DNA of 54,102 bases from a virus (IMGVR_UViG_3300012988_000019:1-54102), one strand, 5' to 3'. Counted from the first letter of the stretch, positions 8,909 through 43,490 are shown. Numbers and translations: made by a program. The notes: generated from the letters alone by a model not told the origin.

Positions 8909-8937
8909 ATACTAGGCTACTGCGTACCGGATGTCAA
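8909..8937 (-). promoter_or_regulatory. SigA-type promoter TTGACA-17-TAGTAT
   Basis: Consensus boxes with 17 bp spacer. Confidence 0.8.
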
Positions 8938-9432: not shown

Positions 9433-9689
9433 CAGTCCTCCAGGTTGGCGCAGTGCTCGTCCCACTCGGGAACGCGCATCACGGCGTTGTAGTCACGGGT
9501 GGTGGTCGCGAAGGCGATGTCGTCGATGCACACCCGGGTGATGTTCGGGTGCTGGTCGACGTTGCCGTAGATCGTGATCTCGTCCGGCTCCTCGAACGGG
9601 ACGTTCTCGACGTCGTACTGCTGCGCGCAGCCCGCGGTCAGGGTGACCAGAGCCGCTGCTGCCAGCACGGCAGCGAGCCTCTTCTTCAT
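9432..9689 (-). CDS. Lipoprotein
   Basis: MKKR, hydrophobic stretch, lipobox LTAG-C. Confidence 0.75.
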   Translation of the reverse strand: MKKRLAAVLAAAALVTLTAGCAQQYDVENVPFEEPDEITIYGNVDQHPNITRVCIDDIAFATTTRDYNAVMRVPEWDEHCANLED

Positions 9690-15824: not shown

Positions 15825-16113
15825 TTGAATCACTCCAGTTGATCAGTCGAGGGGGTCGGTCCCCCCCTTGCGATGAGATAATCATGCCACACCCACTGGG
15901 GTGACTCAAGGCGAGAACGGTAGTTCTTGCTGTGACCTACCTCACTCTCTCACCCCCTTGACGGGAGCACTCCCATGCTCTAGAATCGCGCGCCCGCGCA
16001 CGCTTGTACGCGCCAAGTATCGACGAGACTCTTCGGTTACTGAAGCAAGAGTCCCCTAAAGATGCTACCCCAACCGCCTTGGGTCGCCCCTCGACTCGTG
16101 GTAGAGTATGGGC

Positions 16114-16341
16114 ATGATCAACAACGACATGACCCCCGCCAACGCGATCATCGCGCCCCTCTCGCTCCTGCAGGAGATCACCCCGCCGGCCGCGGGTGCG
16201 CTCATCATCCTGATCAACGCGCTCGACCCGAGCGACGCCGACCGCGACTCCATCGACCAGGCGCTCGTGCGCTTCGAGGGTTCGCACCCGAAGCAGGTCG
16301 CCACCATCCGCCACGAGCTCTTCCGCAAGTTCCGCCACTGA
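16114..16341 (+). CDS. Hypothetical protein (leaderless)
   Basis: Strong GC3 bias; extended -10 TGG-TAGAGT ends 6 nt upstream. Confidence 0.65.
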   Translation: MINNDMTPANAIIAPLSLLQEITPPAAGALIILINALDPSDADRDSIDQALVRFEGSHPKQVATIRHELFRKFRH

Positions 16342-16544
16342 CCCCCCACGAGGGCCCCTACGGGGGCTCTCAGGGCGGAGCGGACCCGCCAGATAGCTAG
16401 CATACTGCCTACCCCCTCAACGGGCTGCAGGAGCGATCCTGACCCCCTCAGCGACTGATGTAGGGCACAAGACCCCCCTAGTCAGGTGGTACTTGCTTCA
16501 GACAAGCAAGCGAATACGTGCTGATGTCACACAAGTGTATAAAC

Positions 16545-16577
16545 AATGCCATTCCCCGGATTCCCGGGGTGGCATTC
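16545..16577 (-). terminator. Hairpin terminator
   Basis: AATGCCA..CCCGG / CCGGGGTGGCATT stem just after the 16586 stop. Confidence 0.5.
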
Positions 16578-16585
16578 TTCAGTAG

Positions 16586-16762
16586 TTATCGGTGGATTGC
16601 TCCGCACTTGTTGCAGAGGTATTCCCCATTCCAGTTGGAATCCGCGGTCGGTTCGCATTCCTTCCCGTCAATGGAAGGGGAGAATCCCATGTATTCGGCG
16701 TCATTGCCGCAGGGGCATTCGAGATCGGAATCGGGGTCAGTGATGGGAATGATGGTAGGCAT
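16586..16762 (-). CDS. Small Zn-finger protein (CPC...CNKC)
   Basis: 58 aa MPTIIPITDPDSDLECPCGND..., translated manually; AAGGGGA RBS. Confidence 0.65.
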   Translation of the reverse strand: MPTIIPITDPDSDLECPCGNDAEYMGFSPSIDGKECEPTADSNWNGEYLCNKCGAIHR

Positions 16763-16775
16763 TGTTTGATTCCCC

Positions 16776-17069
16776 TTAGTTGATCGGCGGGAAGTTATCC
16801 CCGAATGCGTGAATGTAACGTCGGATCAAATCCCAGGTGGTTTCCGACTCGAAAGCATTCAGGAATGCCTCCTCTTCGGCGTCCGAACTGATGAAGGGAT
16901 TGAAGAGATCATTCTCCGCGCATTCCTGCTCGAGAATGCTGAAGAACTGACCGTCGGGGGCATTGTATGCGGCGCGGAATGCCTCGGGGTCGCGCATTGC
17001 TTCCCCAATAACATCGGCAATAACAATGCCAGCGATTACCGGGGGCGTGAGGGGGATGCGATTGATCAT
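16776..17069 (-). CDS. Hypothetical protein (leaderless, lower GC)
   Basis: TTGCTC-17-TATAAT (17076-17104) ends 6 nt upstream. Confidence 0.7.
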   Translation of the reverse strand: MINRIPLTPPVIAGIVIADVIGEAMRDPEAFRAAYNAPDGQFFSILEQECAENDLFNPFISSDAEEEAFLNAFESETTWDLIRRYIHAFGDNFPPIN

Positions 17070-17288
17070 GCCTCAATTATACTCCCCCTACCCCCCTCGA
17101 GCAAGGTGGGTCAAGGTGACTTGGGTCACACTCTTGCTTCAGAGACCGAAGCGCGAGGTTCGCTCCTGCGGGGGCGTACCCCTCAGCAGATAGCTAGCTA
17201 TCCTCGTGCCCCTGCTACCCCCTCAGATCGCTGAGTCGATATGTGCTGATGTAACACAAGAGTGTGACCGACGTCACTTCCCGTGCTA

Positions 17289-17317
17289 TTGACTAACGGT
17301 GTATCCTGTGGTATATT
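17289..17317 (+). promoter_or_regulatory. SigA-type promoter TTGACT-17-TATATT
   Basis: Consensus with extended -10 TG; followed by hairpins rather than a credible gene. Confidence 0.7.
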
Positions 17318-17544
17318 TGTATTGCCACAAAGCGGGCAACAATGAGAGAAAGGGTAGTTGTGTGGGACAACTGTGCATTCCTCGGATTCACATTGTTTGC
17401 ATTGTTTAAATCCATTCTTGTGAGGAATGGGAACAATGTGAAAAAGAATGCCAGCGACCCCCAGCCAGAAAATTTTGAACTTTGTTTTCGCCTCGTATTA
17501 TGGGGCTAGAAAATTCGGCTCTTTGTTCTCCTGAGAATTCAGGG

Positions 17545-17772
17545 CTAGAATCCGTCCTTTCCTCGCTTCATGGTCCTGTTGACCGAAGCTTCCAGAACCA
17601 GTCGCTTCCAGTACTCCTCGAACCGGTCCATCATGGCGCCGATCTCGTACTCGTCCAGGGTCCGGCCGTACTTCTGCTCCTGCGCCTGAGCGTAGCCTCG
17701 GCAGTAACCCTCCCGCGCCTGCTCCTTGGTCCGTCCGACGAGTGCTTCCTGCTCTTCTAGTGGCATGTCCAT
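17545..17772 (-). CDS. Hypothetical protein (leaderless)
   Basis: TTGACT-17-TAGCAT (17779-17807). Confidence 0.7.
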   Translation of the reverse strand: MDMPLEEQEALVGRTKEQAREGYCRGYAQAQEQKYGRTLDEYEIGAMMDRFEEYWKRLVLEASVNRTMKRGKDGF

Positions 17773-18254
17773 GGCACTATGCTACCAGTTCCGTGGTGTG
17801 GAGTCAACTTCCGCACTCTTTCCACACCAGGCCGGCCTCGCTTCGCTGGGATCGGTCTTCCGGAACGGAACGTGGCCGTCGATGCTAGCATCGAGCGAGT
17901 CGGACAGAGTGTTCCGTGGCCATTTGGAGCCGGAATCTTCCCGTCCAAACTCGTGTAGTCCTCCTTCCAACGGGGCCAAACCCCCAGTGCTCCTGTCAAC
18001 GGAGCCTACCCCCCGGTCAAAACCCGGACCGGATCGATCCGAGTGGGAACAAACCGCCAGTCTCTCGGAGCCCACGGTAATTCCTACTGGAATATCCTCG
18101 ATACTCTGTCCTCATTCTTCAACCCCGAACGTGGTAGCTGGATCACCAGACCTTCATTCCGGATGCACCATCATACCACCTAGCGATTCACCCGGACACC
18201 AAACCGGCGACCAGACCCTCACCATCAGAGTCCAATCACCGGCCGGCGCCCGGA

Positions 18255-18464
18255 TCAACTATTCAAGTGGCTGATCAGCTTCTCCCTAGCTTTCTTCAGC
18301 TCACCGATGGTGGTGCCCTCAGACCCCACGTGAAGACTCCAGATGCCTCCATGGATTACCGTGTTATAGTCCCCACCAGGCAGCCAGGTATCATCAGAAA
18401 GCTCCCGCCCTTCGCCTTCAGCCACCCGGTTGAGAATCTGCTCCCGGTCCTCATCGCGAAGCAT
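18255..18464 (-). CDS. Hypothetical protein
   Basis: 69 aa; GAGGAG RBS. Confidence 0.55.
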   Translation of the reverse strand: MLRDEDREQILNRVAEGEGRELSDDTWLPGGDYNTVIHGGIWSLHVGSEGTTIGELKKAREKLISHLNS

Positions 18465-18759
18465 AGTACTCCTCGAGTCTCAGCTCCAGCAGGTCGTACG
18501 TCTGCTCGGTCAGCCCGCCAGTACCAGCGATAAGCCGATGTATCACCCCATTGGCATCCTGGTAGAAGTGAGAGACAGGCCCATCACTCCGGAACATCAT
18601 CTCCCACTTCCGGGCCGTCTCGAGCTTCCCTCCCCGCCGACCCTTACCCCCAAGATCGATGTACCGGCTCTCTACCGGGTCGAGCTTACGCCCCCAGTCG
18701 GGATCGGAGAGCAGTGCCTCCTCCATCCAGTCGGCCGCCTCATCTTCGTACCCCTTCAT
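18451..18759 (-). CDS. Hypothetical protein
   Basis: 102 aa; coupled. Confidence 0.55.
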   Translation of the reverse strand: MKGYEDEAADWMEEALLSDPDWGRKLDPVESRYIDLGGKGRRGGKLETARKWEMMFRSDGPVSHFYQDANGVIHRLIAGTGGLTEQTYDLLELRLEEYYASR

Positions 18760-18890
18760 CCCGAGATACCCGGCTGCGCGTCCCGATACATCATCGGATC
18801 AGCACCCTCGGCCTCACGCTCATCGCGACCATCGACGAGCATCTCCTCGCGATCCTGACCATCTTCCTCAGGTCCCAGCTCACTCATCAT
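18756..18890 (-). CDS. Small acidic protein
   Basis: 44 aa ORF filling the gap with overlapping start/stop. Confidence 0.4.
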   Translation of the reverse strand: MMSELGPEEDGQDREEMLVDGRDEREAEGADPMMYRDAQPGISG

Positions 18891-19476
18891 GCCCAACCTT
18901 TCCTCCGTCAAACGGGCAGAACTTCCAGCCCTCTCGCATCATTCGACCACATCCAGTGCAGCGAGTACCCGAACCCAGATGCCCCTCCCGTTCCGGTTCA
19001 CCGCGACGACGGCGTGCCATCTCGTCGAGCTCGAACTGAATCTCACGGGCAATACCACGAAGCCGCTTGTCAATGAGGTCCTTGAGCTCCAGCGCTTCCT
19101 CATCAGCGATGACCCAGTACTTCTTGTATGACTTCCGCTTGGCCCCACCCCCCGAGATCTGTATCTTGCCTGGGACGTTCCGCGTCGGAGCCTTGCCAAG
19201 TCGACCTGTCTCTGCTTGAGCTGCACCACGCGCACCTGCGCCTCCATCATCCTTGCCAGCCAGCCCCTTGTGCCAGAGCTGCTCGTACGCATCCAGGAAG
19301 CCCTGCGGCAGGAAGAAGAAGACCTCCTTGGCGATCTGGTTATATCCCACACCAGCCGAGGCCATCAGGTCCGCAAACATCGCCTTCGCCTGTCGAGCAG
19401 CGAGAGCGTGAACCAGTGCAGCACCCTGATCCTGCCTCTCTCTTGCTCCCCCGCCTCGTTCGATCGCGTTCTTCAC
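18880..19476 (-). CDS. Protein with C-terminal zinc ribbon
   Basis: CTGC...WKFCPFDG. Confidence 0.7.
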   Translation of the reverse strand: MKNAIERGGGARERQDQGAALVHALAARQAKAMFADLMASAGVGYNQIAKEVFFFLPQGFLDAYEQLWHKGLAGKDDGGAGARGAAQAETGRLGKAPTRNVPGKIQISGGGAKRKSYKKYWVIADEEALELKDLIDKRLRGIAREIQFELDEMARRRRGEPEREGHLGSGTRCTGCGRMMREGWKFCPFDGGKVGHDE

Positions 19477-19563
19477 TATCTACCGACCCTTCCGATGTGG
19501 CTTGTGTGGTGTGTGGTGCGGAGCTGAGCGCAGCGAAGCGACGCGCTCCGTGCCATGCATGCG

Positions 19564-19860
19564 CTACCGCGAGGCAAGGGTGCTAGCCTTCCGCCGGATG
19601 ATCGCGTACTCTGCTTTCCGCTGCCTCGACAGCCCGGGCCAGAGTCGCTTCATCAGCTCGTGCAGACGGTCGCCCTGTACCTGCACCTTGATCCCACCTC
19701 GATGACCCTTGTGCACGTTCAGACCTGCGAGGTCAGCGAATCGCTGGATCGCCTCGATCCGGAAGGTGCTCTTCAGCACGTAACAGGAAGCCCCTTGGCG
19801 TACGAAGAAGGTACCCATCCCATCCATCATGCCTGCCATCCAGGCTTCGTCAACATCCAT
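19564..19860 (-). CDS. Degenerate single-motif LAGLIDADG-like protein (leaderless)
   Basis: AWMAGMMDGMGTF; TTGACA-17-TAGGAT (19867-19895). Confidence 0.6.
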   Translation of the reverse strand: MDVDEAWMAGMMDGMGTFFVRQGASCYVLKSTFRIEAIQRFADLAGLNVHKGHRGGIKVQVQGDRLHELMKRLWPGLSRQRKAEYAIIRRKASTLASR

Positions 19861-20086
19861 AGAGATATCCTATCCTCTGCGGTTTGATCTGTCAATCCAA
19901 TCGGATGCACTGAATCCGATAAGATGCACGAAACAGCCCCGAGTCGAATGTCAGATCTTGACAGAGTGTGTTCGTTTCGTTCGTATTCACCCCTCCGAAG
20001 GAGGGTGATACGCGTATGCATATGACGCGCCCGCGGGCACGGGCACGGGCACGCGCTCGTGCTCGTCCGCGCGAGTGAGTGGGCCG

Positions 20087-32653: not shown

Positions 32654-32823
32654 CAGTTCACCTTCTTGGCGCACTTGTAGCAGAGGATGGCTGGGATGGC
32701 AGTCTCGGTGTAGAATCGAGACCAACCCCCCATATCCAGCCCGCAGGCGGTGCGATCACCCGGGAAGTTCACCAGGTGCATGAGAGACGGTCGCTTGTTA
32801 ACCGTGCGTGCCACTACGAACAT
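32653..32823 (-). CDS. Small Zn-finger protein
   Basis: 56 aa H...TACG...CYKC, translated manually; promoter TTGACG-17-TAGTAT (32858-32886). Confidence 0.65.
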   Translation of the reverse strand: MFVVARTVNKRPSLMHLVNFPGDRTACGLDMGGWSRFYTETAIPAILCYKCAKKVN

Positions 32824-32888
32824 TGCTTCACCTCAATCGTGGTCGATCAGTGAAGCAATACTACCAACACTGACCTATGTCGTCAACA

Positions 32889-33182
32889 TCAGCTTCCCCT
32901 TTCTTGCTTACGGAGTGCCGCCTCGAGCCGGATCATCTCGTTGAACTCGGAGGGGTACTTGCGAGCGAGTCGACGAAACGCGCGCGAGCGGATCAACTCG
33001 CGCTCCCTGGAAGCGTCGAGGGTCTTCCCATCGTTCCGTTGCTTCTGCTCCGCCTGATATCTCGCATGTGCTTCACGGCAGCCGCAGGAGTCTTCCTCAT
33101 CGATCATCACCTTGTGTCGATGGTGGGCCATGTAGCCCGCATTGGTGCCATGGTGGATCGTGATGACTGAGGTCTTAGGCAC
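32889..33182 (-). CDS. HGT..GY..H..C.CR family protein
   Basis: Motif typical of actinophages; GTG start overlaps the pol stop. Confidence 0.6.
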   Translation of the reverse strand: MPKTSVITIHHGTNAGYMAHHRHKVMIDEEDSCGCREAHARYQAEQKQRNDGKTLDASRERELIRSRAFRRLARKYPSEFNEMIRLEAALRKQERGS

Positions 33183-35715
33183 CCTTGTACTCCAGCTTGA
33201 AGTCGTAGACCTGGTCGGGGCTGAGCTCCTTCTTATCGCCCCAGTGCTGCCCGACGGCAACATCGGCGATGATCGGGATGTCGACCACCGTACCGAATTT
33301 CTTGTACACCAGATCCATATCCTCCATCACATCCTTGATGATGGGGAGAGCCTGCGGCAGGTAGTCATCCCGAATCTCGTAGTTGATGGCATCGTGCACC
33401 AACCCGAGGCAGTAACCCATGATGCCCAGCTCGCGGAAGCGTCGGTTAATCTCGATCATCGAGAGTACCGCCATGTCCGAGGCGAAGCCCTGCACCGGAG
33501 AGTTGATCGCCTGGCGCTCGGCTTCAGACTGCACCCCCTTATCGGGCGAGTAGATGTCGGGCAGGTGCCTGACGCGTCCCAGAGGGCTCTGAACTCGCCC
33601 GTACTCGCGCACCAATCGTCGCTGTCGAGCGTGCCAGGGGAGAAGCTTGGGGTAGAGCTGGAAGTATGTCGCCCGAGCGCCCTGTGCCTCGAGCTCGCTG
33701 AACTCGGCCCCGTAGTTCTCGAAGGCGGTCTGGATGAACTTCTTCCACCCCATGCCATAGAGGAAGCCGAAGTTAACTGGCTTGCCCAGCTTCTTGCGCA
33801 CCTCCTTCTCGACCTGAGACTCAGGGATGCCCGCTACTCGAGCAGCAGTGGTAGTGTGAATGTCACCGCCAGTCGCGTAGATGTGCTTCATGTTCGTCTC
33901 GTCGGCAAGGAATGCCGCCACCCGCAGCTCGATCTGCGAGTAGTCGGACTCAACGAATGTCCACCCAGGAGGTGCACCGAACATGCCGCGGATGAAGGCG
34001 TCACGGGGTACCTGCTGCAGGTTGACCCCGCGCAGCTTGCCTCGACTACCGCTGATCTTGTCAGCGTCAGCCTTGCCCGAACTGAGTCGCCCCGTCACCG
34101 TACCCGCCAGCTTGAATGTGGTGTGGATGCGGTGATTCTCGTCGTAGAGCTCGACGTAGGGGTTGAAGAACGCGGTGAGGTGCTTGTTCGCAGTCACCCG
34201 GTCGAGCATGTGCGGTACTACCGGATGCTCATTCTTGAGTGCCATGAGCACGCCTTCCGCCATGCTCGGGTCACCGGGCGAGCCATCCTCCTTGTCCTTG
34301 CCCCGTTCGAGCACCGGCAGTCCGCACCACTCGAACAGCATCCACTTGGCGAAGTTACTCGCGTTGAAGTTTCGCTCGAGCGGGATGCGCTTGTCCCCGG
34401 ACTTGAGGTGTTTGATCGTGGCAGGCCACTCAGGATCACTCGGGTCGGGCAGCTCAGCAGCCTCGGCGATGCGCTCCTCGATCTCAGCGAGCTTCTGCTC
34501 AGCCTGAGGCTTCCGTTCGTTCAGCCGCTTGACATCGATCCAGATGCCCCGGAGCTCAGAGTCAATCAGCTCGCGCTGTGCCGGCATCGTGAGCAGCTTG
34601 AAGATGCGAGCGAGCCGTGGCTGCTCCTTCAGCTCTTCGACCAGCTGCTGCTTCACCCAGTACATGTACCAGGTATCGAGAACGTTGTAGTGCAGCACGT
34701 CATCCAGGTCGTGCTTGAACAGGTCACCGGTGTCGATGCCCCAGGGCTCCACACCCAGGCGAGCCATTGCCTGAGGCTTCAGTCCCTTCTGGATATTCTC
34801 GTTCATCAGCGCGATGGCGAGCATGGTGTCGAAGGTGGGATAGAGCTTCACCCCGTACCAGATCAGCCACTTGCAGTCGAAGCTGGAGTTGTGAGCCACC
34901 ACCTTGCGGATGCCCTCAGTATGCTTACCGATGACCCGCAGCACCTGCTTCCAGCTGCTTCGCCAGGGCGACTGGGGGTGGCAGAGAGGGACCGCGATCA
35001 CGGCTCGCTTGCGCTGACCGAAGGTGTCGGGCTTCAGAATGCAGGTGGCCGCGAGCGAGACCATCTTGGACTCGTCCTTGTAGTACTCGCCGCTGGGTGC
35101 GTGCGTCTCGATGTCGACGTAGATTTCGTCAGTCCTGTCGAGAATCTTGAGCACCAGGGCGAGTGAGGCCTTGTCCCGAGCCACTGTGTACTTCGGATCA
35201 GGAATACCAACCTCGCGGCCCTTCACCTTGTTCACGAAGAGCCTCAGGTCAGCGATGTAGCCTGGCGTCTGACCCGGGTTGCGCTTCACTGCCGAGGGCG
35301 AGATGGTGGCGATGACCTCAGCACCGAAGTCGGTCGTGAAGGTCTTGCCTCGGTACTTGGTGATACCCGACTTGCCCGTCAGCGCGAGCAGTGCCTCATT
35401 ACCGAGCGCGAGGATGTACTTCGGCTTGATACGCCGGATCTCCTCGTCGAAGTAGTCAGCTGCGTGAGTCTTGAGCTGCTTGTTCGTGAGCGAGAGGTCG
35501 AACGACCGGCACTTGATCACCGGAGTGAAGTAGACCGAGCCGACATCCAACCCCAGCTCGGTGAGCTGAGCCTCAAGCGCCTGCTGGTAGGTGCCCGAGT
35601 TCTTCATCTTGCCGACGACCACGATCTTCGCGTCAGCTGGCCCGGTGGAGTAGGTCTCGACGCGGTGGGGGTCATCACAGAGGATGCACTGGTCGAGAAG
35701 CTGTACGACTGTCAT
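33175..35715 (-). CDS. polA: Family A DNA polymerase with N-terminal UDG-like domain and 3'-5' exonuclease
   Basis: DIET, HNSSFD, YNVLD exonuclease motifs; TGRLSS, DYSQIELR, K..NFGFLYG, VHDA; leaderless promoter TTGACC-17-TAGAAT (35722-35750). Confidence 0.95.
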   Translation of the reverse strand: MTVVQLLDQCILCDDPHRVETYSTGPADAKIVVVGKMKNSGTYQQALEAQLTELGLDVGSVYFTPVIKCRSFDLSLTNKQLKTHAADYFDEEIRRIKPKYILALGNEALLALTGKSGITKYRGKTFTTDFGAEVIATISPSAVKRNPGQTPGYIADLRLFVNKVKGREVGIPDPKYTVARDKASLALVLKILDRTDEIYVDIETHAPSGEYYKDESKMVSLAATCILKPDTFGQRKRAVIAVPLCHPQSPWRSSWKQVLRVIGKHTEGIRKVVAHNSSFDCKWLIWYGVKLYPTFDTMLAIALMNENIQKGLKPQAMARLGVEPWGIDTGDLFKHDLDDVLHYNVLDTWYMYWVKQQLVEELKEQPRLARIFKLLTMPAQRELIDSELRGIWIDVKRLNERKPQAEQKLAEIEERIAEAAELPDPSDPEWPATIKHLKSGDKRIPLERNFNASNFAKWMLFEWCGLPVLERGKDKEDGSPGDPSMAEGVLMALKNEHPVVPHMLDRVTANKHLTAFFNPYVELYDENHRIHTTFKLAGTVTGRLSSGKADADKISGSRGKLRGVNLQQVPRDAFIRGMFGAPPGWTFVESDYSQIELRVAAFLADETNMKHIYATGGDIHTTTAARVAGIPESQVEKEVRKKLGKPVNFGFLYGMGWKKFIQTAFENYGAEFSELEAQGARATYFQLYPKLLPWHARQRRLVREYGRVQSPLGRVRHLPDIYSPDKGVQSEAERQAINSPVQGFASDMAVLSMIEINRRFRELGIMGYCLGLVHDAINYEIRDDYLPQALPIIKDVMEDMDLVYKKFGTVVDIPIIADVAVGQHWGDKKELSPDQVYDFKLEYKGA

Positions 35716-35724
35716 ATGGCTATT

Positions 35725-36273
35725 CTACCTCTCCATCGATGAGAGGTCAACGACCCGGATTCCAGCAGCAGTGAGCATCCACACCCCACTGGCGATGCGG
35801 TACGGCACCTTGTAGATCACCCGCTTCACCCCGACGTTCAGCAGCGAGCCGGCGCAGGTAGGGCAGGGCATGTGAGTGACATGAACCTCCGAGCCCTCGA
35901 GCGAGATGCCATGGCGAGCCGCGAAGTCGATGCCATTCCGCTCAGCGTGGTTGGCGATGGGGCATCCGTGCAGGACATCTCTCTCCCACCGACGGTCATC
36001 CCCGGCCCGAGTGAAAAACTCTCCTGGCTGGAAGTGGCAACCCTCGGGCCACTCCTGAGCCATCATGTCATCCACCCACTCGGGTCGATCACCATCTCCC
36101 ACGACGTAGTGCTCGCAGTGAGGCTGCCCCTTCGGTGCGCCGTTGTAGCCCGTTGCGAGGATGCGTCCCTCGCGGCTGAAGACCGCACCGACCCTCAGCC
36201 TCGAACACGTACCCCGCTTGGCCGCGACAGTTGCGTGCTCCATCAGCATCTGGTCCCTGCTCAGGCGCTCCAT
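35725..36273 (-). CDS. dCMP deaminase
   Basis: TGYNG, HAERN, THMPCPTC. Confidence 0.92.
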   Translation of the reverse strand: MERLSRDQMLMEHATVAAKRGTCSRLRVGAVFSREGRILATGYNGAPKGQPHCEHYVVGDGDRPEWVDDMMAQEWPEGCHFQPGEFFTRAGDDRRWERDVLHGCPIANHAERNGIDFAARHGISLEGSEVHVTHMPCPTCAGSLLNVGVKRVIYKVPYRIASGVWMLTAAGIRVVDLSSMER

Positions 36274-37124
36274 GCCTTGCCCTCCTCGTCGCGCAGCTTC
36301 ATGGCGGGGACATCCCCAGCGAAGCAGTGCAGCGAGACGATGTGCATGATCAGCTCGCTCACCTCGTACCTCAGCTGGCCCACCTCGTCGTTGAGACGGT
36401 CTCGCACCCACTGGGCCAGGCGACCCGCCATGTAGACATCGTCCTGGAAGTGCCGGATCAGGTCGCAGGAGCGCATGTAGTACGTGATCTGGAGCTTGTC
36501 GCCCCGGATCATGAAGTGGTACCCCAGCGTGCAGGGCACCCGCTCACCGTGAACCGCCCCCGTGTCCTCGGGGAACCAGATCGGGAGAAAGGCCTGGCGA
36601 GTGAGCGGCCCCTTCTTCAGCTGGTTGACGACATCGTCCAGGTCGCCGTAGTAGAACCGGATGCCATGCATGGGGTCCCAGGCCGTCGAGTTCGACTTCG
36701 CCATGTCGACGTAGGCCTCACCCGCCCACTTCGGCCACATCCGCTCGGGGTACGTGTGGGAGAAGGCCTCGCCCTGGCTCTTGTGGGCCTTGTTGGTCTC
36801 GCCGACCTCCGTCTTCTGCGCGAACGGCCACCAGGCCTCGCTCGGCGCGGGGTTCAGCGGCTCACCCCCCACCCGCTCCTTGAAGTGGTCCTCAGCCCAG
36901 GGCAGGTGAGCCCCGGTCTTCATCGCCAGGTGGTGCGCGGTGTGAGGGATCGGCATCACCATGCTCACGTTGGCGAGCTCGTGCGTCGCCAGCATCGGCT
37001 TGTCGCTGATGTCCTGCGACTGCCACTCGCCCGTGGCCACGATCGGGACCTCGAGCAGACGGCGCTGAAGGGTGCGGAAGACCTCTTCGAAGTCGTCGCC
37101 GTCGAATGCGTGAAGCGTCATCAT
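36261..37124 (-). CDS. Thymidylate synthase-fold enzyme (ThyA / dNMP hydroxymethylase family)
   Basis: TRQA, PCTLGYHF, MRSCD, SLH motifs; Asp at the Asn177-equivalent position. Confidence 0.85.
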   Translation of the reverse strand: MMTLHAFDGDDFEEVFRTLQRRLLEVPIVATGEWQSQDISDKPMLATHELANVSMVMPIPHTAHHLAMKTGAHLPWAEDHFKERVGGEPLNPAPSEAWWPFAQKTEVGETNKAHKSQGEAFSHTYPERMWPKWAGEAYVDMAKSNSTAWDPMHGIRFYYGDLDDVVNQLKKGPLTRQAFLPIWFPEDTGAVHGERVPCTLGYHFMIRGDKLQITYYMRSCDLIRHFQDDVYMAGRLAQWVRDRLNDEVGQLRYEVSELIMHIVSLHCFAGDVPAMKLRDEEGKAWSA

Positions 37125-37180
37125 CTCTCCTCGAGTGCTTGGAAGGCCGTCAGGATCGCCCGTACGCGATCATGCAGTCG

Positions 37181-38215
37181 TCACTCGTCATCGTCGTCGA
37201 AGTCGTCCCCATCGCCTCCCACGAAGGGCTCGCCGTACGCCCGGGTGATGGGCATGCCGATGGGCGAGAAGTCGAGGCTATCAGCCTTGACCGAGGGGAG
37301 CAAACCGTAGAACTTGAAGAACTCCTTCTGCTCTCCCTCCTTCGGGCCCTTCTTGTAGTAGGACCACCCCTCGAACTTCTTGGCGTAGTCCTCGCCCATC
37401 ACCTCGGTGTGGAAGCGTCGCACGATCCGGCGGAACGTGTTGTACGTCATGTCACCGTAGGTGCGACCGGCGCGGTCGTCGCTGATGACCTTGCGCAGCC
37501 ACTTGCGGGACAGCTTGATCGCCGGCGAGCTGAGGATGGCCCTCTTCTCCACACCGGTGAGTGCGCTCGAGTCCTCCATGAGGTACCGGCGGTACTGCTT
37601 GCGCATGTTCTGGTCGTGGTGGTTGAGCATGTAGGCCAGCGACTTGAAGTTGTGCCACTGGATCGCCGAGTTCATCCAGACGAAGCTGATGTCGGAAACA
37701 TCGATCTTCATCTCCTTGGCGAGGTACCGGGCGCACATCCAGGCGACGGTCAGGTCGAGCGCCCCGATGTAGCCCAGGTACGAAGTGCGGGACATGAGCG
37801 TGATCGTCGGCTTCGGCTTCGCCTTGTACGAGATCGAGAGCATGCAGGAGCCCCAGCGACGCGTCTCCTTGTTGGTGTGACCGGTCGCGGCACCACCGCG
37901 CGGCTTCACCACCTTGGTGCGCATGGTCGCGATCCCTCGACCCTTGGTGCCGATCTTGCCCGTGCACTGCCCGATCCAGGCCTCGAGCTCCTCGGGGTCG
38001 ATGTACTGCCGGACCATCATCGACCAGCGCTGCTTGGTGAGCCACATCGACTTGAGGTCGAAGTCCCAGTCCATGGACTCGGCCTCGGCGATGACGTCGT
38101 GGATCTGGACGTCGACCGTGGAGATGACGTCGAGCTCACCCTCCTTGGCGGTGATGAGGCTGTCACAGAGCAGGTCGTGCAGCTCCGTGAGGGTAGGCGC
38201 GGTGTAGGTGCGCAT
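37181..38215 (-). CDS. Divergent second TS-fold protein
   Basis: GSCMLSISY...LMSRTSYLGYIGALD...IQWH parallels TS motifs; adjacent to the TS gene. Confidence 0.55.
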   Translation of the reverse strand: MRTYTAPTLTELHDLLCDSLITAKEGELDVISTVDVQIHDVIAEAESMDWDFDLKSMWLTKQRWSMMVRQYIDPEELEAWIGQCTGKIGTKGRGIATMRTKVVKPRGGAATGHTNKETRRWGSCMLSISYKAKPKPTITLMSRTSYLGYIGALDLTVAWMCARYLAKEMKIDVSDISFVWMNSAIQWHNFKSLAYMLNHHDQNMRKQYRRYLMEDSSALTGVEKRAILSSPAIKLSRKWLRKVISDDRAGRTYGDMTYNTFRRIVRRFHTEVMGEDYAKKFEGWSYYKKGPKEGEQKEFFKFYGLLPSVKADSLDFSPIGMPITRAYGEPFVGGDGDDFDDDDE

Positions 38216-38364
38216 CAGTGCATGACTCCAATGAGCTTGAGCAGGGTGATCACCAGGATGGTGGGCACCAGGAGGATGACCGCGATCACGGCCGTGAAGA
38301 AGGCGGCAGTCACCGCAGTCGCAAACCGGTCACGCAGCTTGTCCGGCTTCTGGTCGTTCTGCAT
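38215..38364 (-). CDS. Small membrane protein
   Basis: 49 aa with one long hydrophobic helix. Confidence 0.6.
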   Translation of the reverse strand: MQNDQKPDKLRDRFATAVTAAFFTAVIAVILLVPTILVITLLKLIGVMH

Positions 38365-38852
38365 CAGTACCGCCCGAAGCAGATGAAGGAGCCGGGGTGC
38401 AGCGGGTCCTCGTGGCACTGGACCGCGTCGTCGTCCAGCGCGCGCCGGCAGTGCGGGCACTTCGTCGAGACGCCGTCGTAGCCCTCCTCCTGCCGCTTGA
38501 TGTTCTTCGTACGCTTCCGGTAGTACTTGACGAAGAGGTCCTCCGGGGTCATGCCCGCGGTCATGCAGAGGTTCATGAAGAAGTGGAAGGCATCCACCAG
38601 CTCGCCCTGCACGGCCTCCTCGTTGAAGTGCTTGGAGGTGGCCCAGGGCTTCCAGCCCATCTCGTCGAGCGCCTCGTGGAGCTCGTCGATCAGCGCGATG
38701 TGCATGTCCTTGTAGAACTGCAGCCGCTGCTCACCGCTCAGCTGGTACGGGTCGGCGCCGAAGTTCTTCTCCTGCATGGAGCGCTGGAGCTCGAACATCG
38801 TGGCGAGGCGGTCATCCACACCCAGCTGGCCGTCGGGGGTGATCTCGGTCAT
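38364..38852 (-). CDS. All-alpha NTP pyrophosphatase (dimeric dUTPase / MazG-like)
   Basis: ALIDELHEAL..WKPW..ELVDAFHF..KNIKRQ..GY. Confidence 0.88.
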   Translation of the reverse strand: MTEITPDGQLGVDDRLATMFELQRSMQEKNFGADPYQLSGEQRLQFYKDMHIALIDELHEALDEMGWKPWATSKHFNEEAVQGELVDAFHFFMNLCMTAGMTPEDLFVKYYRKRTKNIKRQEEGYDGVSTKCPHCRRALDDDAVQCHEDPLHPGSFICFGRY

Positions 38853-39400
38853 GCGAACTTCCTCTCGATGTGGCGCATCACGCCGTTGAACGTGGCCAGC
38901 GGGTCATCCTCGCGGCCATCCTTGGTGTAGTCGTAGATGAAGACCCGAGCCTGCGTGGCCTCCTCATCGATGGCAGCACGAGCGCAGTACGCCTGGTAGA
39001 TCGCGTCGATCTTGCCCTGGACGACCACATTGTCGGGGTCATCCCAGATGTTCTCCCTGACGACCTGCAGCGGCGGGAGGCAGTAGATGATGATCGGCTG
39101 GCACCGGTAGAAGTCGCCCATCCAGAGCAGCATCTGGATCGGGTCGTCGAAGCCCTGCTCCGCGCTACCTCGCAGGATCGGCCCGTAGATCGTCTCGGAG
39201 ATCAGGCGGTGTCGGTCGAAGAGCATGGGCTTCTCGCCCCAGTGCTCGAGGCTGTCGGCGATCCAGGCCGGCAGGTCGACCATGGCCTCAGCGTCCTTGG
39301 AAACGACCCTCGGCGCGAGCTCGAGGAACGGCCACCGCTCGAGCAGCGACTTGATCAGCGTGGTCTTGCCGGCACCATCCGGCCCCTCGACGATGATCAC
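38849..39400 (-). CDS. P-loop dNMP kinase (thymidylate kinase-like)
   Basis: IIVEGPDGAGKTT, FDRHRLISE.IYG. Confidence 0.88.
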   Translation of the reverse strand: MIIVEGPDGAGKTTLIKSLLERWPFLELAPRVVSKDAEAMVDLPAWIADSLEHWGEKPMLFDRHRLISETIYGPILRGSAEQGFDDPIQMLLWMGDFYRCQPIIIYCLPPLQVVRENIWDDPDNVVVQGKIDAIYQAYCARAAIDEEATQARVFIYDYTKDGREDDPLATFNGVMRHIERKFA

Positions 39401-39756
39401 AGGACCGGCTCGCTCGGGAAGAGGATCGGGTAGCTCCAGGGCTCCTGACTGGTGATCAGTACCGGGCCCCCATCGATGCGACGGAAGTCGGGCGACTGGA
39501 TCATGTCGTAGGGGCCGATGACCGGGCGAGAGAAGATGGTGCCGTTGGGCCGGGTGTCGGTGACCAGCGTCGGGATGCGCCAGAACTCGGTTGTGTAGTA
39601 CTTGCCCGAGGTCTTGAAGAGGATCACTTCGACCCTCTCGATCGTCGGCGGGTGCTTCTGCTCGCGACCAGCCGACCAGATCTCGCCGCAGCTACACTGC
39701 CAGTACGGTCTGCTCTCTGAACCCATGAGCTTGGCGATGTGCGGCTTGTTCTCCAT
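39397..39756 (-). CDS. Hypothetical protein
   Basis: FKTSGKYYT motif; promoter TTGACA-18-TAGAGT (39784-39813). Confidence 0.65.
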   Translation of the reverse strand: MENKPHIAKLMGSESRPYWQCSCGEIWSAGREQKHPPTIERVEVILFKTSGKYYTTEFWRIPTLVTDTRPNGTIFSRPVIGPYDMIQSPDFRRIDGGPVLITSQEPWSYPILFPSEPVL

Positions 39757-39809
39757 TGTCTTATCCTTCCGGGTGGATGATTAACTCTATCAGTTCGGAA
39801 CTGAAGATG

Positions 39810-41363
39810 TCAATCACTCAGCTTCCCGCCTGCGACTCGGAGCAGTCGCTCGGGGGACATGATCATCTTCTTGCCGATGTCGCCATCCTCCATGAGGGTC
39901 TCATAGAGGAGGAAGTCAACGGTGTTTGCCCCGAGGTAGAACTCGTGGAACGTCGGCTTGTCGCTCAGCGCGATACGGTCCGAGAACTGACGGAAGTTCA
40001 CCCAGCTCTGCGGCAGGCTGTACCACTGGAGGATCGATGCACAGCTCAGGTCGATGGCCTCACCAGCAGCAGCGGGCTGACCGATGAAGACTGCACCACC
40101 CTGCGTCTTCTTGAACTGGGCCGGCATCCTGTCGCGCTCAGCCTGCTTCATCCCCCCATAGATCGAGTAGACGGGCACCTTCAGCTGCTTCCGGCAGAGC
40201 TCGAGCAGTCGCTGGATGTCGGCCTTGAACAGGGCGCCGATGACGACCTTCTCATCGGCTTCCATCAGATCCTCAAGCCTGCTCTGGATCATCCGCAGCT
40301 TTTCTGCACCCACCACTACCAGTCGACCCTCACGGTGCTGAGGAGTCGGCGAGGTCTTGCTGAGGCCCGAGGTAATCTGCTGCAGTCGCAGTCGCTGAAC
40401 CAGGCGGATACTCGCCTCAGTGATCTCACCCGTGTGAATGCGGGCGACCATGTCCTCGGCCATCTGGTCGTAGACCCCAGCAGACTCCTCGAGCGGTACC
40501 GGGATGATCTGAGTGGTTTGCTTAGGAAGGTCGTAGCACTCCTCACGAGTGATGCTGAAGGCATCCAGGTGCACGAGCGAGTGCAGCTCGTCCTCGTTAC
40601 GGGCACCCTTCCATACCTCGTAACGACCATCCCCAGCCTTGACCCATCGCCCGTAGTAGTGCTTGAACTCATTGAAGTTCATGTTGGGGAAGCGATCGGG
40701 GTTAAGGAACTGCCACTGGCTATAGATGTCGTACAGACGCTTGCTCTTCGTCACTACCGTACCGGTCAGCAGAACTCGGTAGTCGGCGACCTTGCCGAGG
40801 GTGTGGAGAGCAGTCGACTTCTTGGCAGACGGGGACTTGATACGGTGGCTCTCGTCGAGGATCATGAGCTGAGGCTGCCACCGCTTGAACGCCTTGATCA
40901 TGTCGTAGCGTCCACCGCGCCTAGCGCGAATCTTGGCCCCGCCCTTGTCGAGGATCGGCTGGCCCTTCTTTGGACCGCTGCGATGCACTCGGAAGTCACC
41001 CGGCACCGAGAAGGCGTCGTAATTGATCAGCACGATGTCGAGGATGTCCTGGCCATACGGAGGCAGCGACTGCACCTTGCGGCCCTTGCGGTCCCAGACC
41101 GTAAGTCGATAGGGTACGGGACAGTTCTCCTTGAGCTGGTCCTTCCACACCTGGATCGCGACGACCGGGCCGACCATGACTACTCGGTTGACCTTCCCCT
41201 GCATGTGCAGGATGGACATGTAGTCGATCGCTACCTTGGTCTTGCCTGTCCGGGGTTCCATGAGGAGCGCCCCGCCCCAGCCGTTCGCCATCAGCTTCTT
41301 GACGGCGGCCACCTGGTGGGCGTATGGACGCTTCTTCCACCTGTACTTGAGCCGATCTGCCAT
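39810..41363 (-). CDS. SNF2/SF2 helicase
   Basis: EPRTGKT, ILDESH, LTGT, QFSDRI; leaderless promoter TTGACT-18-GATAAT. Confidence 0.92.
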   Translation of the reverse strand: MADRLKYRWKKRPYAHQVAAVKKLMANGWGGALLMEPRTGKTKVAIDYMSILHMQGKVNRVVMVGPVVAIQVWKDQLKENCPVPYRLTVWDRKGRKVQSLPPYGQDILDIVLINYDAFSVPGDFRVHRSGPKKGQPILDKGGAKIRARRGGRYDMIKAFKRWQPQLMILDESHRIKSPSAKKSTALHTLGKVADYRVLLTGTVVTKSKRLYDIYSQWQFLNPDRFPNMNFNEFKHYYGRWVKAGDGRYEVWKGARNEDELHSLVHLDAFSITREECYDLPKQTTQIIPVPLEESAGVYDQMAEDMVARIHTGEITEASIRLVQRLRLQQITSGLSKTSPTPQHREGRLVVVGAEKLRMIQSRLEDLMEADEKVVIGALFKADIQRLLELCRKQLKVPVYSIYGGMKQAERDRMPAQFKKTQGGAVFIGQPAAAGEAIDLSCASILQWYSLPQSWVNFRQFSDRIALSDKPTFHEFYLGANTVDFLLYETLMEDGDIGKKMIMSPERLLRVAGGKLSD

Positions 41364-41370
41364 GGGGGTA

Positions 41371-41832
41371 TTATCTCACCAGCCGACCGCGAGAGTCAAT
41401 GACTGGATACCAGTACCCTTCCGCTGGTTCCTCGGGCCAATTGAACCGCCCGTACCACTCGGGGTCTTTGCGCAGGAGGTTGGCGCGGTGAACGGAGTGG
41501 AACCGCTTGAGCCCGATGAACGGGGGCAGAAGCACGTTACCCCTGCGGAACTGGCGATCGATCTGGGCCGGGTAGTATAGGTCGCGGGTTTTCTCCCAGC
41601 AGGTGTCCTTGTAGCCTCGGCGCTGCCATTCTTTGCAGATGTACCACTGGTAGGAAAGAAGAGCACCCTCGTAGCCTCGCCACATCTTCGTGACGGGGTG
41701 ATTGACCCAGCCCTCGTCGGTCACGAGAGCCTTCATGATCTGCAGGGTCTCGACTCGCTGCTTACCGAGACGTGCTCTGTCGAGCACCCGAGCCGATGAC
41801 TGGAAGCTCCGGTAAGGGAGGAACGTTTGCAT
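41371..41832 (-). CDS. Pyrimidine-dimer glycosylase / MSMEG_6728-like protein
   Basis: MQTFLPY...LD..RLGKQRVE...NHP..MW.GY...H..NLLRKDP..Y. Confidence 0.85.
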   Translation of the reverse strand: MQTFLPYRSFQSSARVLDRARLGKQRVETLQIMKALVTDEGWVNHPVTKMWRGYEGALLSYQWYICKEWQRRGYKDTCWEKTRDLYYPAQIDRQFRRGNVLLPPFIGLKRFHSVHRANLLRKDPEWYGRFNWPEEPAEGYWYPVIDSRGRLVR

Positions 41833-42383
41833 CAGACCTTCTTCGCGCAGACGGGGCCGATGCCCGCCTTGATCGACTCGTCAGCGGTGAGCTCTGCCCC
41901 GCAGATGATGCACCGACCGTGGAGCTTGCCCAGCTCCTTAGCCCGCTCGAGCGAGAGCTTGGAGCCGTGCATGAAGACCTCGTGCGAGCCCCCCTCGATG
42001 TACTCGAACTTGCCCCTGTCGTTGAGCACCTTGGCATAGCGTCGACCCGCCATGGAGGTGAGCAGCTTGTAGATGCGACCTCGAGCTTCGTAGAAGCCGT
42101 CCTCGACGACCCGTGCCTCATGCGCGGGGTTACCTGCTCGCTGGCGGTACGGAGCCGCACGGAGAGCTTCGATCATGTCCGAAGCAGCCTTGCTCGTCAA
42201 GGGCGTACCCTTGCCATCGCGGCAATCACGGATGATCTGCTCCTGCTTGTCGCGGGGCACCTCTGGAGCATACTCGCGCTCGTTCAGCAAGATGAGGATG
42301 TAGTTGTACTGCTTCACCGAAGCGAGTCTCACCTCGCTCGGCCGGTACGGGTTGCGCCAGTACTGGTGGGTCATCGCGGTCAT
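41832..42383 (-). CDS. DUF6011-like protein (leaderless)
   Basis: CIICGAELT..ESI..GIGPVC; TTGACA-16-TAGAGT (42390-42417). Confidence 0.75.
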   Translation of the reverse strand: MTAMTHQYWRNPYRPSEVRLASVKQYNYILILLNEREYAPEVPRDKQEQIIRDCRDGKGTPLTSKAASDMIEALRAAPYRQRAGNPAHEARVVEDGFYEARGRIYKLLTSMAGRRYAKVLNDRGKFEYIEGGSHEVFMHGSKLSLERAKELGKLHGRCIICGAELTADESIKAGIGPVCAKKV

Positions 42384-42419
42384 GTGATCACTCTACCATC
42401 TCCACACCAGGTGTCAAGG

Positions 42420-42824
42420 TCAGTCGCGGGCAGGGTAGATGTTCACCTGCAGCTCATCGGGGTAGAACGAGTAGTCACGAGGATCGGAGTTGCTCGGCGC
42501 CGACTCGGTGTGGAATGCCCGTCCGCGCGCCTTGAACGGGGCGATGATATCGGCGCGCGCGAGGAGGTTCCGAAGGCCCTGGTTCTGCACGGTGGGGCGC
42601 TTGCAGGTGGGGCAGACGAACCAGCCGAGCTTGCCCCCTCGCTGAATACCCCACTCCTTGTAGTCCTTCGTGGAGCGGTAGCACTGGCAGAGCTTGCCAG
42701 GGCGGGCGAAGAGACCCACTACCCTGAAAGCCTTGCCCTTGCGAGTGGCAGTATCAATCTGCGCGCGTAGGGCATCCGCTTGGGCGGCGTCATCGAACTC
42801 GATGAGAAGGTAGCGAGCGGGCAT
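42420..42824 (-). CDS. Zn-binding hypothetical protein
   Basis: CQC...CPTC. Confidence 0.65.
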   Translation of the reverse strand: MPARYLLIEFDDAAQADALRAQIDTATRKGKAFRVVGLFARPGKLCQCYRSTKDYKEWGIQRGGKLGWFVCPTCKRPTVQNQGLRNLLARADIIAPFKARGRAFHTESAPSNSDPRDYSFYPDELQVNIYPARD

Positions 42825-42866
42825 CAGATTCCCCTCTGGAATGTCGTATGCGGTCGATCACCCCCC

Positions 42867-42950
42867 ATACTATATACACAGATCACTAATGTCAAAGTGG
42901 GAAGCACTGCACCTTCCAGCCTTGACATGATAGCCATGGCTCATTAGATT
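42867..42950. promoter_or_regulatory. Divergent promoters: minus TTGACA-17-TAGTAT (42867-42895) and plus TTGACA-17-TAGATT (42922-42950)
   Basis: Perfect -35 boxes with 17 bp spacers. Confidence 0.8.
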
Positions 42951-43019
42951 AGTACTCGCATCGCTCACCCAACGAGCTAGGCGGACAACCCGGTCCGCCA
43001 TCGATCAAGGAGAATCATC

Positions 43020-43490
43020 ATGGCCCGAGCCCGTGCCGCCGCCAAGCCCGCCGTCGAGGTCGAGGAGGAGGTGGAGGCCACCGAGGAGACCCAGGAGGTC
43101 GCCTTCGGCGTCGCCGACATCGTCGCCCTGATCAAGACCAAGTTCAAGCAGGACACCACCACCCGCGAGCTGCGGACCCTGCTCCGCAAGATGGCCCGCG
43201 ACGGCCGCCTCGACCGCGAGATCGTCGCCGGCAACCGGGCCCGCTGGGAGTGGTCCGGCCCGAACGACCCCGAGGTCAAGGCCATCCTCAAGGCCTTCAA
43301 GGACGGCGAGCTCGAGGCCGACAAGAAGGAGAAGCTCGAGGCGCTGAAGCAGCGCAAGGCCGAGCAGAAGGCCGCGGCCGCCGCCGAGGCGGAGAAGGCC
43401 GAGAAGGCCGCCGCCAAGAAGGGCAAGAAGGCCGCGGTCGTCGAGGTCGAGGACGACGACGAGGACCTCGAGGACGACGACGAGTCCTGA
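43020..43490 (+). CDS. Putative HTH DNA-binding protein with Lys/Ala-rich and acidic tail
   Basis: AAGGAG RBS; TTRELRTLLRK...RWEW; extreme GC3 bias. Confidence 0.75.
   Translation: MARARAAAKPAVEVEEEVEATEETQEVAFGVADIVALIKTKFKQDTTTRELRTLLRKMARDGRLDREIVAGNRARWEWSGPNDPEVKAILKAFKDGELEADKKEKLEALKQRKAEQKAAAAAEAEKAEKAAAKKGKKAAVVEVEDDDEDLEDDDES

Follow-up and report, generated by a model that had tools for sequence, protein, structure and literature searches.

A conserved phage cassette with two thymidylate synthase-fold proteins as a candidate deoxycytidylate-rewiring module

Background

Modified bases decide phage survival against restriction and CRISPR, and they also supply enzymes for DNA sequencing chemistry. 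Two described pathways that alter cytosine nucleotides before replication are those of phages T4 and Xp12, which are resembled in layout by a gene cassette on the minus strand of the IMG/VR virus record IMGVR_UViG_3300012988_000019. The window analysed here is this whole record of 54,102 bases, which is estimated to be 91% complete. The cassette encodes a homologue of thymidylate synthase (TS) and, directly before it, a second protein with a predicted TS fold, which we call X. In T4, the hydroxymethylcytosine pathway comprises gp56, which is a deoxycytidine and deoxyuridine triphosphatase (dCTPase/dUTPase), the deoxycytidylate (dCMP) hydroxymethylase gp42, the deoxynucleoside monophosphate (dNMP) kinase gp1, the dCMP deaminase cd, the TS td and glucosyltransferases.

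A preprint of the MetaGPA work (bioRxiv 10.1101/2024.12.05.627091) reports that deaminases of the dCMP family lie at most 3 kb from a TS gene in 104 of 149 cases on contigs scored as cytosine-modified, compared with 17 of 277 on unmodified ones, and gives MafB19-deam, PRA-PH, DNA_pol_A and DNA_pol_A_exo1 as the other top neighbour domains on modified contigs. According to the same source, five of seven linked TS homologues tested made 5-methyl-dCMP (5mdCMP), and one linked deaminase converted 5-methyl-dCTP (5mdCTP) to thymidine triphosphate (dTTP). Residue rules for such enzymes, numbered after Escherichia coli ThyA, have also been reported. Asp at position 177 selects dCMP, on mutagenesis and metavirome data, and methyl products are associated with a hydrophobic residue at position 143, hydroxymethyl products with an acidic one (PMC13326640, PMC8670742). 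The substitution D169N is described as the mark of the flavin-dependent 5-hydroxy-dCMP (5hodCMP) synthases (PMC13326640).

These last enzymes (RB69 gp48, DLP3 gp80 and HY126 AfhB; PDB 9iqc/9iqu) are TS-fold proteins reported to act on dCMP by non-folate chemistry (PMC13326640). The cytidine monophosphate (CMP) 5-hydroxymethylase MilA (5b6d/5jnh) has Asp at the Leu143 position; its substrate is a ribonucleotide, and it serves bacterial antibiotic synthesis, not a phage DNA pathway. As for the cassette itself, the genome announcement of phage Azira calls its four recognisable genes thymine synthesis (PMC10353413).

Results and discussion

The cassette belongs to a run of minus-strand genes that reads, from 41,363 to 33,175, SNF2-type helicase, an open reading frame (ORF) of 119 amino acids (aa), and then the following six genes, with family assignments made by Pfam, PHROGs and NCBIfam.

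38849..39400, minus strand: P-loop nucleotide kinase, thymidylate-kinase-like, 183 aa (phrog_761)
38364..38852, minus strand: all-alpha nucleoside triphosphate (NTP) pyrophosphatase of the dimeric dUTPase (dUTPase_2) type, 162 aa (Pfam PF08761)
37181..38215, minus strand: protein X, predicted TS fold, 344 aa (phrog_13667 and AlphaFold2 (AF2) fold)
36261..37124, minus strand: TS homologue, putatively of cytosine type, 286-287 aa (PF00303)
35725..36273, minus strand: zinc deaminase of the dCMP-deaminase family, T4 cd-like, 182 aa (PF00383 and PDB matches)
33175..35715, minus strand: family A DNA polymerase (PolA) with 3'-5' exonuclease and an N-terminal family-4 uracil-DNA glycosylase (UDG)-like domain, 846 aa (Pfam)

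The six genes are present, contiguous and on one strand, as an earlier reading of the window (the sequence-only reading) had described, and several neighbours overlap by 4-13 nucleotides (nt). The kinase start overlaps the upstream ORF stop by 4 nt, and the deaminase overlaps the 3' end of the TS gene by 13 nt. We lean, with modest confidence, towards the explanation that the cassette is a pre-replicative module of the T4/Xp12 kind that rewires deoxycytidylate metabolism, in which the TS homologue, the deaminase and X, the last by a second C5 reaction, act on deoxycytidine (dC) nucleotides.

The TS homologue is placed in the superfamily by its match to PF00303 (7.7e-8, 32.2 bits, gathering cut-off 24.3). 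However, its scores against the TS equivalogs of NCBIfam all fall far under their cut-offs (the best is 44.6 bits versus 174.55), and with these scores and Asp229 it lies outside the canonical ThyA that methylates deoxyuridylate (dUMP; EC 2.1.1.45). Its best sequence match in the PDB is the N229D mutant of Lactobacillus casei TS (1njc), a mutant crystallised with dCMP. The motif RSCDLIRHFQDD aligns residue for residue with RSADIFLGVPFD of that structure, and the second Asp of RHFQDD falls on the N229D position, so the QDD motif indeed carries Asp where the sequence-only reading had put it, at the position of Asn229 in L. casei and Asn177 in E. coli. The catalytic Cys in its Pro-Cys motif and the Arg-Ser-x-Asp motif (Arg218-Ser-Cys-Asp221) are both present. 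Alignment of the window protein with 83 relatives gave 84 rows, two of them incomplete, and the following counts for the remaining 82, each with the equivalent residue of E. coli ThyA.

Cys198 (Cys146): 82/82
Arg218 (Arg166): 82/82
Asp229 (Asn177): 82/82
Asp221 (Asp169): 78 Asp, 4 Glu
Arg195 (Leu143, Cys minus 3): 82/82
Thr199 (His147): 61 Thr, 21 Ser

A profile built from 39 relatives aligns without gaps to MilA over the active-site core, with C-T-L, Y-M-R and the Asp in common, and also matches T4 gp42 (1b49; 3e-5). The AF2 model (mean predicted local distance difference test, pLDDT, 79.6) matches AfhB with Z 18.8 (23-24% identity), MilA with Z 18.1 and classical TS with Z of about 17.5, scores that are effectively tied. 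By the published residue rules (PMC13326640, PMC8670742), the TS homologue would be a cytosine-type enzyme and not a 5hodCMP synthase, the D169N signature being absent (Asp221). Its product cannot be read from these rules because position 143 is Arg: of the features of a gp42-type dCMP hydroxymethylase it has Asp177 and lacks the acidic residue at the Leu143 position, and of those of an Xp12-type 5mdCMP synthase it again has Asp177 and lacks the bulky hydrophobic residue. PF00303 has a single match in the 91%-complete record, and neither a uracil-type TS nor ThyX was found there. We also considered a 5-hydroxymethyluracil cluster for thymidine hypermodification of the M6/ViI type, and rejected it since the TS homologue is of the Asp type.

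Protein X has no family in Pfam or NCBIfam and corresponds to phrog_13667, of unknown function (2.2e-106). Searches of the PDB with phmmer and with an X profile returned chance-level matches alone and no TS, and full profile-profile comparison with the TS family (hhalign) gave a probability of 2.75%; X thus matches neither PF00303 nor a TS profile at the sequence level. Its AF2 model, made from an 82-sequence alignment, has pLDDT 94.8 and a predicted template modelling score (pTM) of 0.92. Foldseek found 21 PDB matches to this model at E <= 1e-3, and all of the matches listed belong to the TS superfamily, with probability 1.00; the top entries are the dCMP hydroxylase AfhB of phage HY126 and MilA. 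Structural alignment by VIA-align gave Z 15.6 to 9iqu (root-mean-square deviation 3.7, 187 residues), 15.3 to 9iqc and 14.9 to MilA, with Z of about 12 to classical TS over an alignment spanning residues 7-334, and 396 of 1000 chains reached Z >= 8. Fold searches in BFVD and the ESM Atlas concur. The predicted structure therefore identifies X as a highly diverged TS-fold protein, which is the fold that the sequence-only reading had supposed. About 100 extra, mostly helical residues with conserved basic positions follow the His188 strand (about 200-280). In the window's subfamily X ends in an acidic C-terminal tail; many members are 260-300 aa long, and the tail is confined to the close subfamily.

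Twelve residues of X are invariant (83/83) in the window protein and 82 relatives, namely Cys124, Ser142, Arg143, Tyr146, Asp154, Trp58, Arg63, Tyr71, Gly122, Trp180, Arg263 and Arg267. In a wider set of 82 representatives, down to 22% identity, Cys124, Arg143, Gly122, Tyr71 and Trp180 are all kept in 82/82, position 154 is Asp in 81, Glu in one and Asn in none, and Tyr146 is found in 67/82. As judged from these alignments, the conservation of the Cys, Arg and Asp of X is beyond chance.

The sequence-only reading had noted that X shares the TS spacing, and X does read GSC, 18 residues and then RTSYLGYIGALD. A restricted profile alignment (probability 3.3%, not significant on its own), which is the best local alignment of the core profiles, sets Cys124, Arg143, Tyr146 and Asp154 of X on Cys198, Arg218, Asp221 and Asp229 of the TS homologue, and the strand-strand-helix(-strand) order in the X model agrees with this register. 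On ThyA it would equate Cys124 with Cys146, Arg143 with Arg166, Tyr146 with Asp169, Asp154 with Asn177, Trp121 with Leu143 and His188 with His207. Both TS-fold proteins would then carry a carboxylate at the specificity position (Asp229 in the TS homologue, Asp154 in X), and X would have Tyr146 in place of the RSxD Asp, two points on which we agree with the sequence-only reading. With Tyr146, X also lacks the D169N signature of the 5hodCMP synthases.

The kinase, pyrophosphatase and deaminase belong to families that fit a pre-replicative cytosine-nucleotide pathway, as had been supposed. The kinase matches phrog_761 ('thymidylate kinase', 3e-21), with hits to Pfam AAA_33 and the NCBIfam dTMP kinase below cut-offs only, and we propose that it phosphorylates a (modified) dNMP. 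The pyrophosphatase matches PF08761 (3.7e-15), phrog_18650 (2.6e-41) and the dUTPase 1w2y in the PDB (3.6e-5), and is proposed to be a dCTPase/dUTPase. Its C-terminus (38364-38460) is rich in Cys and His (CPHC ... C.H), with a weak match to DUF7575 (0.0031), and is possibly a small zinc ribbon. The gap between the pyrophosphatase and X genes is 148 nt here, and the same two genes abut in phage Shrew.

The deaminase matches PF00383 (4.5e-21) and MafB19-deam (5.1e-10) and, in the PDB, T4 dCMP deaminase (1vq2) over residues 11-176, that is, over its full length (1.2e-20), as well as 2hvv (5.8e-21). Its ORF extends to 36411; the Met at 36273 is favoured by homologues and by the TS stop codon. PolA, which would consume the deoxynucleoside triphosphate (dNTP) pool, matches DNA_pol_A (9.7e-71), UDG (1e-10) and exo1 (5.8e-6), and its UDG domain scores 2.4e-11 and 43.6 bits against NCBIfam UDG_fam4, below the cut-off of 125.3. 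Family-4 UDGs have the motifs GEAPG and HPSP, and the N-terminal domain of PolA (35200-35715) reads, by eye, GKMKN and ISPSA; the domain may serve to bind a base and not to excise it.

Homologues of X are numerous: a search of proteins 189-602 aa long gave 1107 at E <= 1e-3, with 203 clusters at 50% identity. By tblastn, at least 85 records of cultured or deposited phages contain X, by host Gordonia (68), Mycobacterium (9, including Muddy and FF47), Streptomyces (4), Microbacterium (2), Curtobacterium (1) and Mycobacteroides (1). A branch with shorter proteins, of about 269 aa, is present in 18 records, from phages of Serratia, Pseudomonas, Stutzerimonas, Yersinia, Brevundimonas and Desulfofustis and from uncultured Caudoviricetes. 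X was not detected by tblastn in Xanthomonas phages.

We retrieved 80 IMG/VR loci holding X with a close 19-sequence alignment and searched them by tblastn with the window proteins. Gene order is constant across them. The TS gene directly follows X in 79/80, the single miss being a locus that ends at X, and the helicase is found in 77/80, the kinase in 76/80 at the same position, PolA in 75/80 downstream of the cassette, and the deaminase in 75/80 (four of the five misses are loci cut short). A dUTPase of the window's type is found in 66/80. Twelve further loci have the kinase and X without a dUTPase match; there the slot holds PRA-PH in nine, dUTPase_2 in one and nothing recognised in two, so that the pyrophosphatase slot is occupied in 76/80. 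The nine MazG-like PRA-PH genes, between kinase and X, are in loci L010, L014, L018, L019, L028, L029, L032, L050 and L057, and this looks like an in-place swap of related all-alpha NTP pyrophosphatases. The cassette order is kept in phages Shrew, Muddy (gp50 to gp44) and Serbin; Muddy gp45 (L002 7673-8083), annotated as hypothetical, is a homologue of the deaminase (40% identity, residues 2-181, E 8.5e-27). X and TS are also adjacent in all six Gram-negative-type phage records compared by coordinates.

The layout of the module thus resembles the T4/Xp12 pathways. Like the metavirome neighbourhoods and Xp12, it places an Asp177-type TS gene immediately ahead of genes for a dCMP_cyt_deam_1/MafB19-type deaminase and a family A polymerase that includes an exonuclease, keeps an all-alpha NTP pyrophosphatase close by and lacks a separate uracil-type TS. 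Its PRA-PH variant has all five Pfam domains reported around the deaminases of cytosine-modified contigs (10.1101/2024.12.05.627091). This likeness is at the level of domains, at which the papers work; X, which has no Pfam family, goes without mention in the portions of them that we cite, and the Arg at the Leu143 position sets the window's TS apart from the enzymes reported there (bioRxiv 10.1101/2024.12.05.627091; PMC8670742). Three motif strings from the module family did not occur in four eLife MetaGPA supplementary files. With T4 the module shares its logic and its enzyme classes: the deaminase matches cd over its full length, the TS profile matches gp42, and both systems have Asp at the specificity site. 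In contrast to T4, however, the second TS-fold enzyme here would be of cytosine type, where td is of uracil type, the TS has Arg and not an acidic residue at the Leu143 position, no glycosyltransferase was found among the scanned ORFs, and the genes lie together in a compact block next to that of the polymerase.

The best structural matches of both proteins are the flavin-dependent 5hodCMP synthases (PMC13326640), with Z values within about 1 of those for MilA and, for the TS homologue, also of those for classical TS. Unlike them, neither protein has D169N (Asp/Glu in TS, Tyr in X), and X has its helical addition of about 100 residues. MilA shares the gapless Cys ... Arg ... Asp core with the TS homologue and differs from it in having Asp at the Leu143 position, in its setting and probably in its substrate, as described above. 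The sequence-only reading had put the cassette forward as a candidate novel one, which overstates the case: its neighbourhood is in print at the domain level, cultured actinophages have it under a thymine-synthesis annotation (PMC10353413), and at least 85 phage records carry it. Only protein X appears to be undescribed.

From the folds, residues, gene order and conservation observed, we infer substrates, products, cofactor and oligomeric state as follows. The all-alpha pyrophosphatase would convert dCTP (and dUTP) to the monophosphate. Cys198 of the TS homologue would attack C6 of dCMP, selected by Asp229, and add a one-carbon group at C5, giving 5-methyl-dCMP or 5-hydroxymethyl-dCMP, which the kinase would pass on towards the triphosphate for the phage PolA. 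Part of the pool of C5-substituted dC nucleotides would be turned by the T4-cd-like deaminase into thymidine (dT)-type nucleotides, and this supply would explain a phage without a uracil-type TS or ThyX. That the deaminase could act in this way had been suggested in the sequence-only reading, and it agrees with what is reported of deaminases linked to Asp177 TS genes (10.1101/2024.12.05.627091).

X would be a second TS-fold enzyme, peculiar to this module, that catalyses a C5 reaction on a cytosine nucleotide different from that of the TS homologue. Its nucleophile Cys, phosphate-binding Arg and cytosine-selecting Asp would be kept and its cofactor side remodelled, with Tyr for Asp169, Trp for Leu143 and the helical addition with the conserved Arg263 and Arg267. 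We read X as a catalytically active enzyme, judging by its conserved residues. No glycosyltransferase had been seen in the window, and none was found when 36 ORFs were compared with PHROGs and 26 with Pfam; methyl- and carbamoyltransferases were likewise not found among these scanned ORFs, many of which have no family.

Several observations weigh against a deoxycytidylate-rewiring module. Residues 90-160 of the TS homologue, the region in which classical TS binds folate, are disordered in the model (pLDDT <50). The Arg at the Leu143 position is of neither the hydrophobic (methyl) nor the acidic (hydroxymethyl) type, in any of the 82 sequences. The placing of X residues on those of TS depends on their spacing, on secondary structure and on an alignment that is not significant. 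The mean z of six-base palindromes in the window is -0.33, against 0.01 (standard deviation 1.34) for 6-mers of other kinds, and every GC-rich palindrome occurs at least once. CGATCG (22 observed, 45 expected) and GGATCC (5 observed, 14 expected) are depleted, and full C-modification of the genome would make such depletion unnecessary. Finally, the literature searched yielded no paper that describes X or the DNA chemistry of the carrier phages.

If the two TS-fold enzymes do make modified dC nucleotides, the DNA chemistry of an actinophage group and of some Gram-negative phages has been overlooked, X would represent a new type of reaction in a classic enzyme fold, and the module might affect which hosts therapy phages infect and how sensitive they are to defences. 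The module is common, yet it is annotated as plain thymine synthesis plus one hypothetical gene, even in Muddy, which has been used in patients. A bolder form of the proposal, which we put forward only tentatively, is that X combines the Cys/Arg/Asp set of the TS fold with a non-folate cofactor to make an undescribed deoxycytidylate derivative, in which case more than 1000 phages would carry an unrecognised base or produce an unrecognised nucleotide while infecting; among them would be cultured phages of Gordonia, Streptomyces, Microbacterium and Serratia, as well as Muddy, a mycobacteriophage used in therapy.

The rival that survives best, which we hold possible but doubtful, is that the cassette serves only as a thymidylate bypass and the DNA stays canonical. 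Here dCTP would be converted to dCMP, to 5-methyl-dCMP by the Asp-type TS and then to dT nucleotides, which the thymidylate-type kinase would take up; X would be accessory or regulatory, and virion DNA would hold little or no modified cytosine. The kinase is thymidylate-kinase-like, a uracil-type TS and ThyX are both missing from the phage, and some restriction-type palindromes are depleted, all of which suit such a bypass. Cultured carriers such as Muddy are in routine handling, and no report of unusual DNA in them was found in the literature searched. The preprint cited above also proposes that linked deaminases make dT from 5-methyl-dC nucleotides; however, it reports such neighbourhoods as enriched on contigs scored as cytosine-modified (10.1101/2024.12.05.627091). 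Furthermore, a dedicated NTP pyrophosphatase and a second conserved, catalytic-looking enzyme exceed the needs of a bypass, and nothing in it would keep the polymerase from using the 5-methyl-dCTP formed.

The sequence-only reading had proposed a heterodimer of X and the TS homologue, and this model, read as an obligate complex and a single enzyme for one non-canonical nucleotide, is one that we think unlikely. TS-fold enzymes form dimers in which arginines of one subunit enter the active site of the other, and the TS homologue keeps only Arg176-Gln177 at the classical Arg-Arg pair. The two genes are strictly adjacent and co-occurring (79/80 loci), and all TS matches of at least 38% identity among the 60 of 218 listed come from phages that are also in the X lists. 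Nevertheless, the full Cys/Arg/Asp set stands in both proteins, with no complementary loss. In a mirror-tree analysis of 64 loci, the distances of X and TS correlate with r 0.56, and with a partial r of 0.18 given PolA, which is no correlation beyond phylogeny. X tracks the helicase (0.85) and PolA (0.80) more closely than it tracks TS, which suggests that exchange is freer for the TS gene than for X. A search for fused forms of X among proteins of 603-2000 aa found none, although this is weak evidence. Taken together, these signs lean weakly against an obligate heterodimer, and X more likely works as its own dimer.

It is similarly improbable, in our view, that X is a non-catalytic TS-fold protein, whether a nucleotide sensor, an allosteric partner or a replisome scaffold acting through its acidic tail. 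Classical TS features are indeed lost, in that X has no Arg21-type loop, Tyr for Asp169 and no Pfam match, and X evolves in step with the helicase and polymerase. Acidic C-terminal tails are used by replication proteins for docking, but the tail of X is limited to its close subfamily, and without a chemical role it is difficult to see why the Cys at the nucleophile position, Arg143 and Asp/Glu154 should stay invariant over such deep divergence. Ordinary thymidylate synthesis from dUMP by the deaminase, TS, dUTPase and thymidylate kinase, as annotated in Shrew, Muddy and Serbin and in the Azira announcement (PMC10353413), is very hard to credit, given Asp and not Asn at position 177 in 82/82 sequences and NCBIfam TS scores far under their cut-offs, and it leaves X unaccounted for.

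Other features of the window

The record has about 63% G+C, and its closest cultured relatives are phages of Curtobacterium and Microbacterium. Two soil metagenomes were the sequencing runs found to carry the stretch, and no RNA run was among the matches listed.

39784..39813, minus strand: promoter-like site TTGACA-18-TAGAGT, 10/12 matches to the consensus, a consensus match only

This site lies upstream of the 119-aa ORF and the kinase and is a possible start of the cassette transcription unit; a promoter-like consensus match also lies upstream of PolA. Sigma-70-like matches are enriched in 32800-43200, with 10 observed against 2.1 expected from shuffles; seven of the 10 are on the coding (minus) strand, and five of those seven lie no more than about 60 nt ahead of the start of a gene. 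The 119-aa ORF (39397-39756, minus strand), between helicase and kinase, has no family and no tblastn relatives in the related loci (0/80), and looks like a lineage-specific insertion. An 81-aa ORF at 38215-38460 was rejected as a gene, having no family and overlapping the dUTPase gene.

Two genes upstream of the cassette, 41371-41832 (minus strand) encodes a pyrimidine-dimer DNA glycosylase (Pyr_excise, T4 endonuclease V type, 2.3e-24), with homologues in just 8/80 related loci. The 182-aa protein encoded at 8917-9465 (minus strand) matches Pfam PF25185, the Tad3 inhibitor of type I Thoeris, above cut-off (2.5e-28), and is likely an anti-defence protein. The region 16000-20000 has a lower G+C content (0.57-0.59) and a strongly negative GC skew at 18001-20000 (-0.218); it contains short ORFs only, no tRNA genes and one weak 29-nt tandem repeat.

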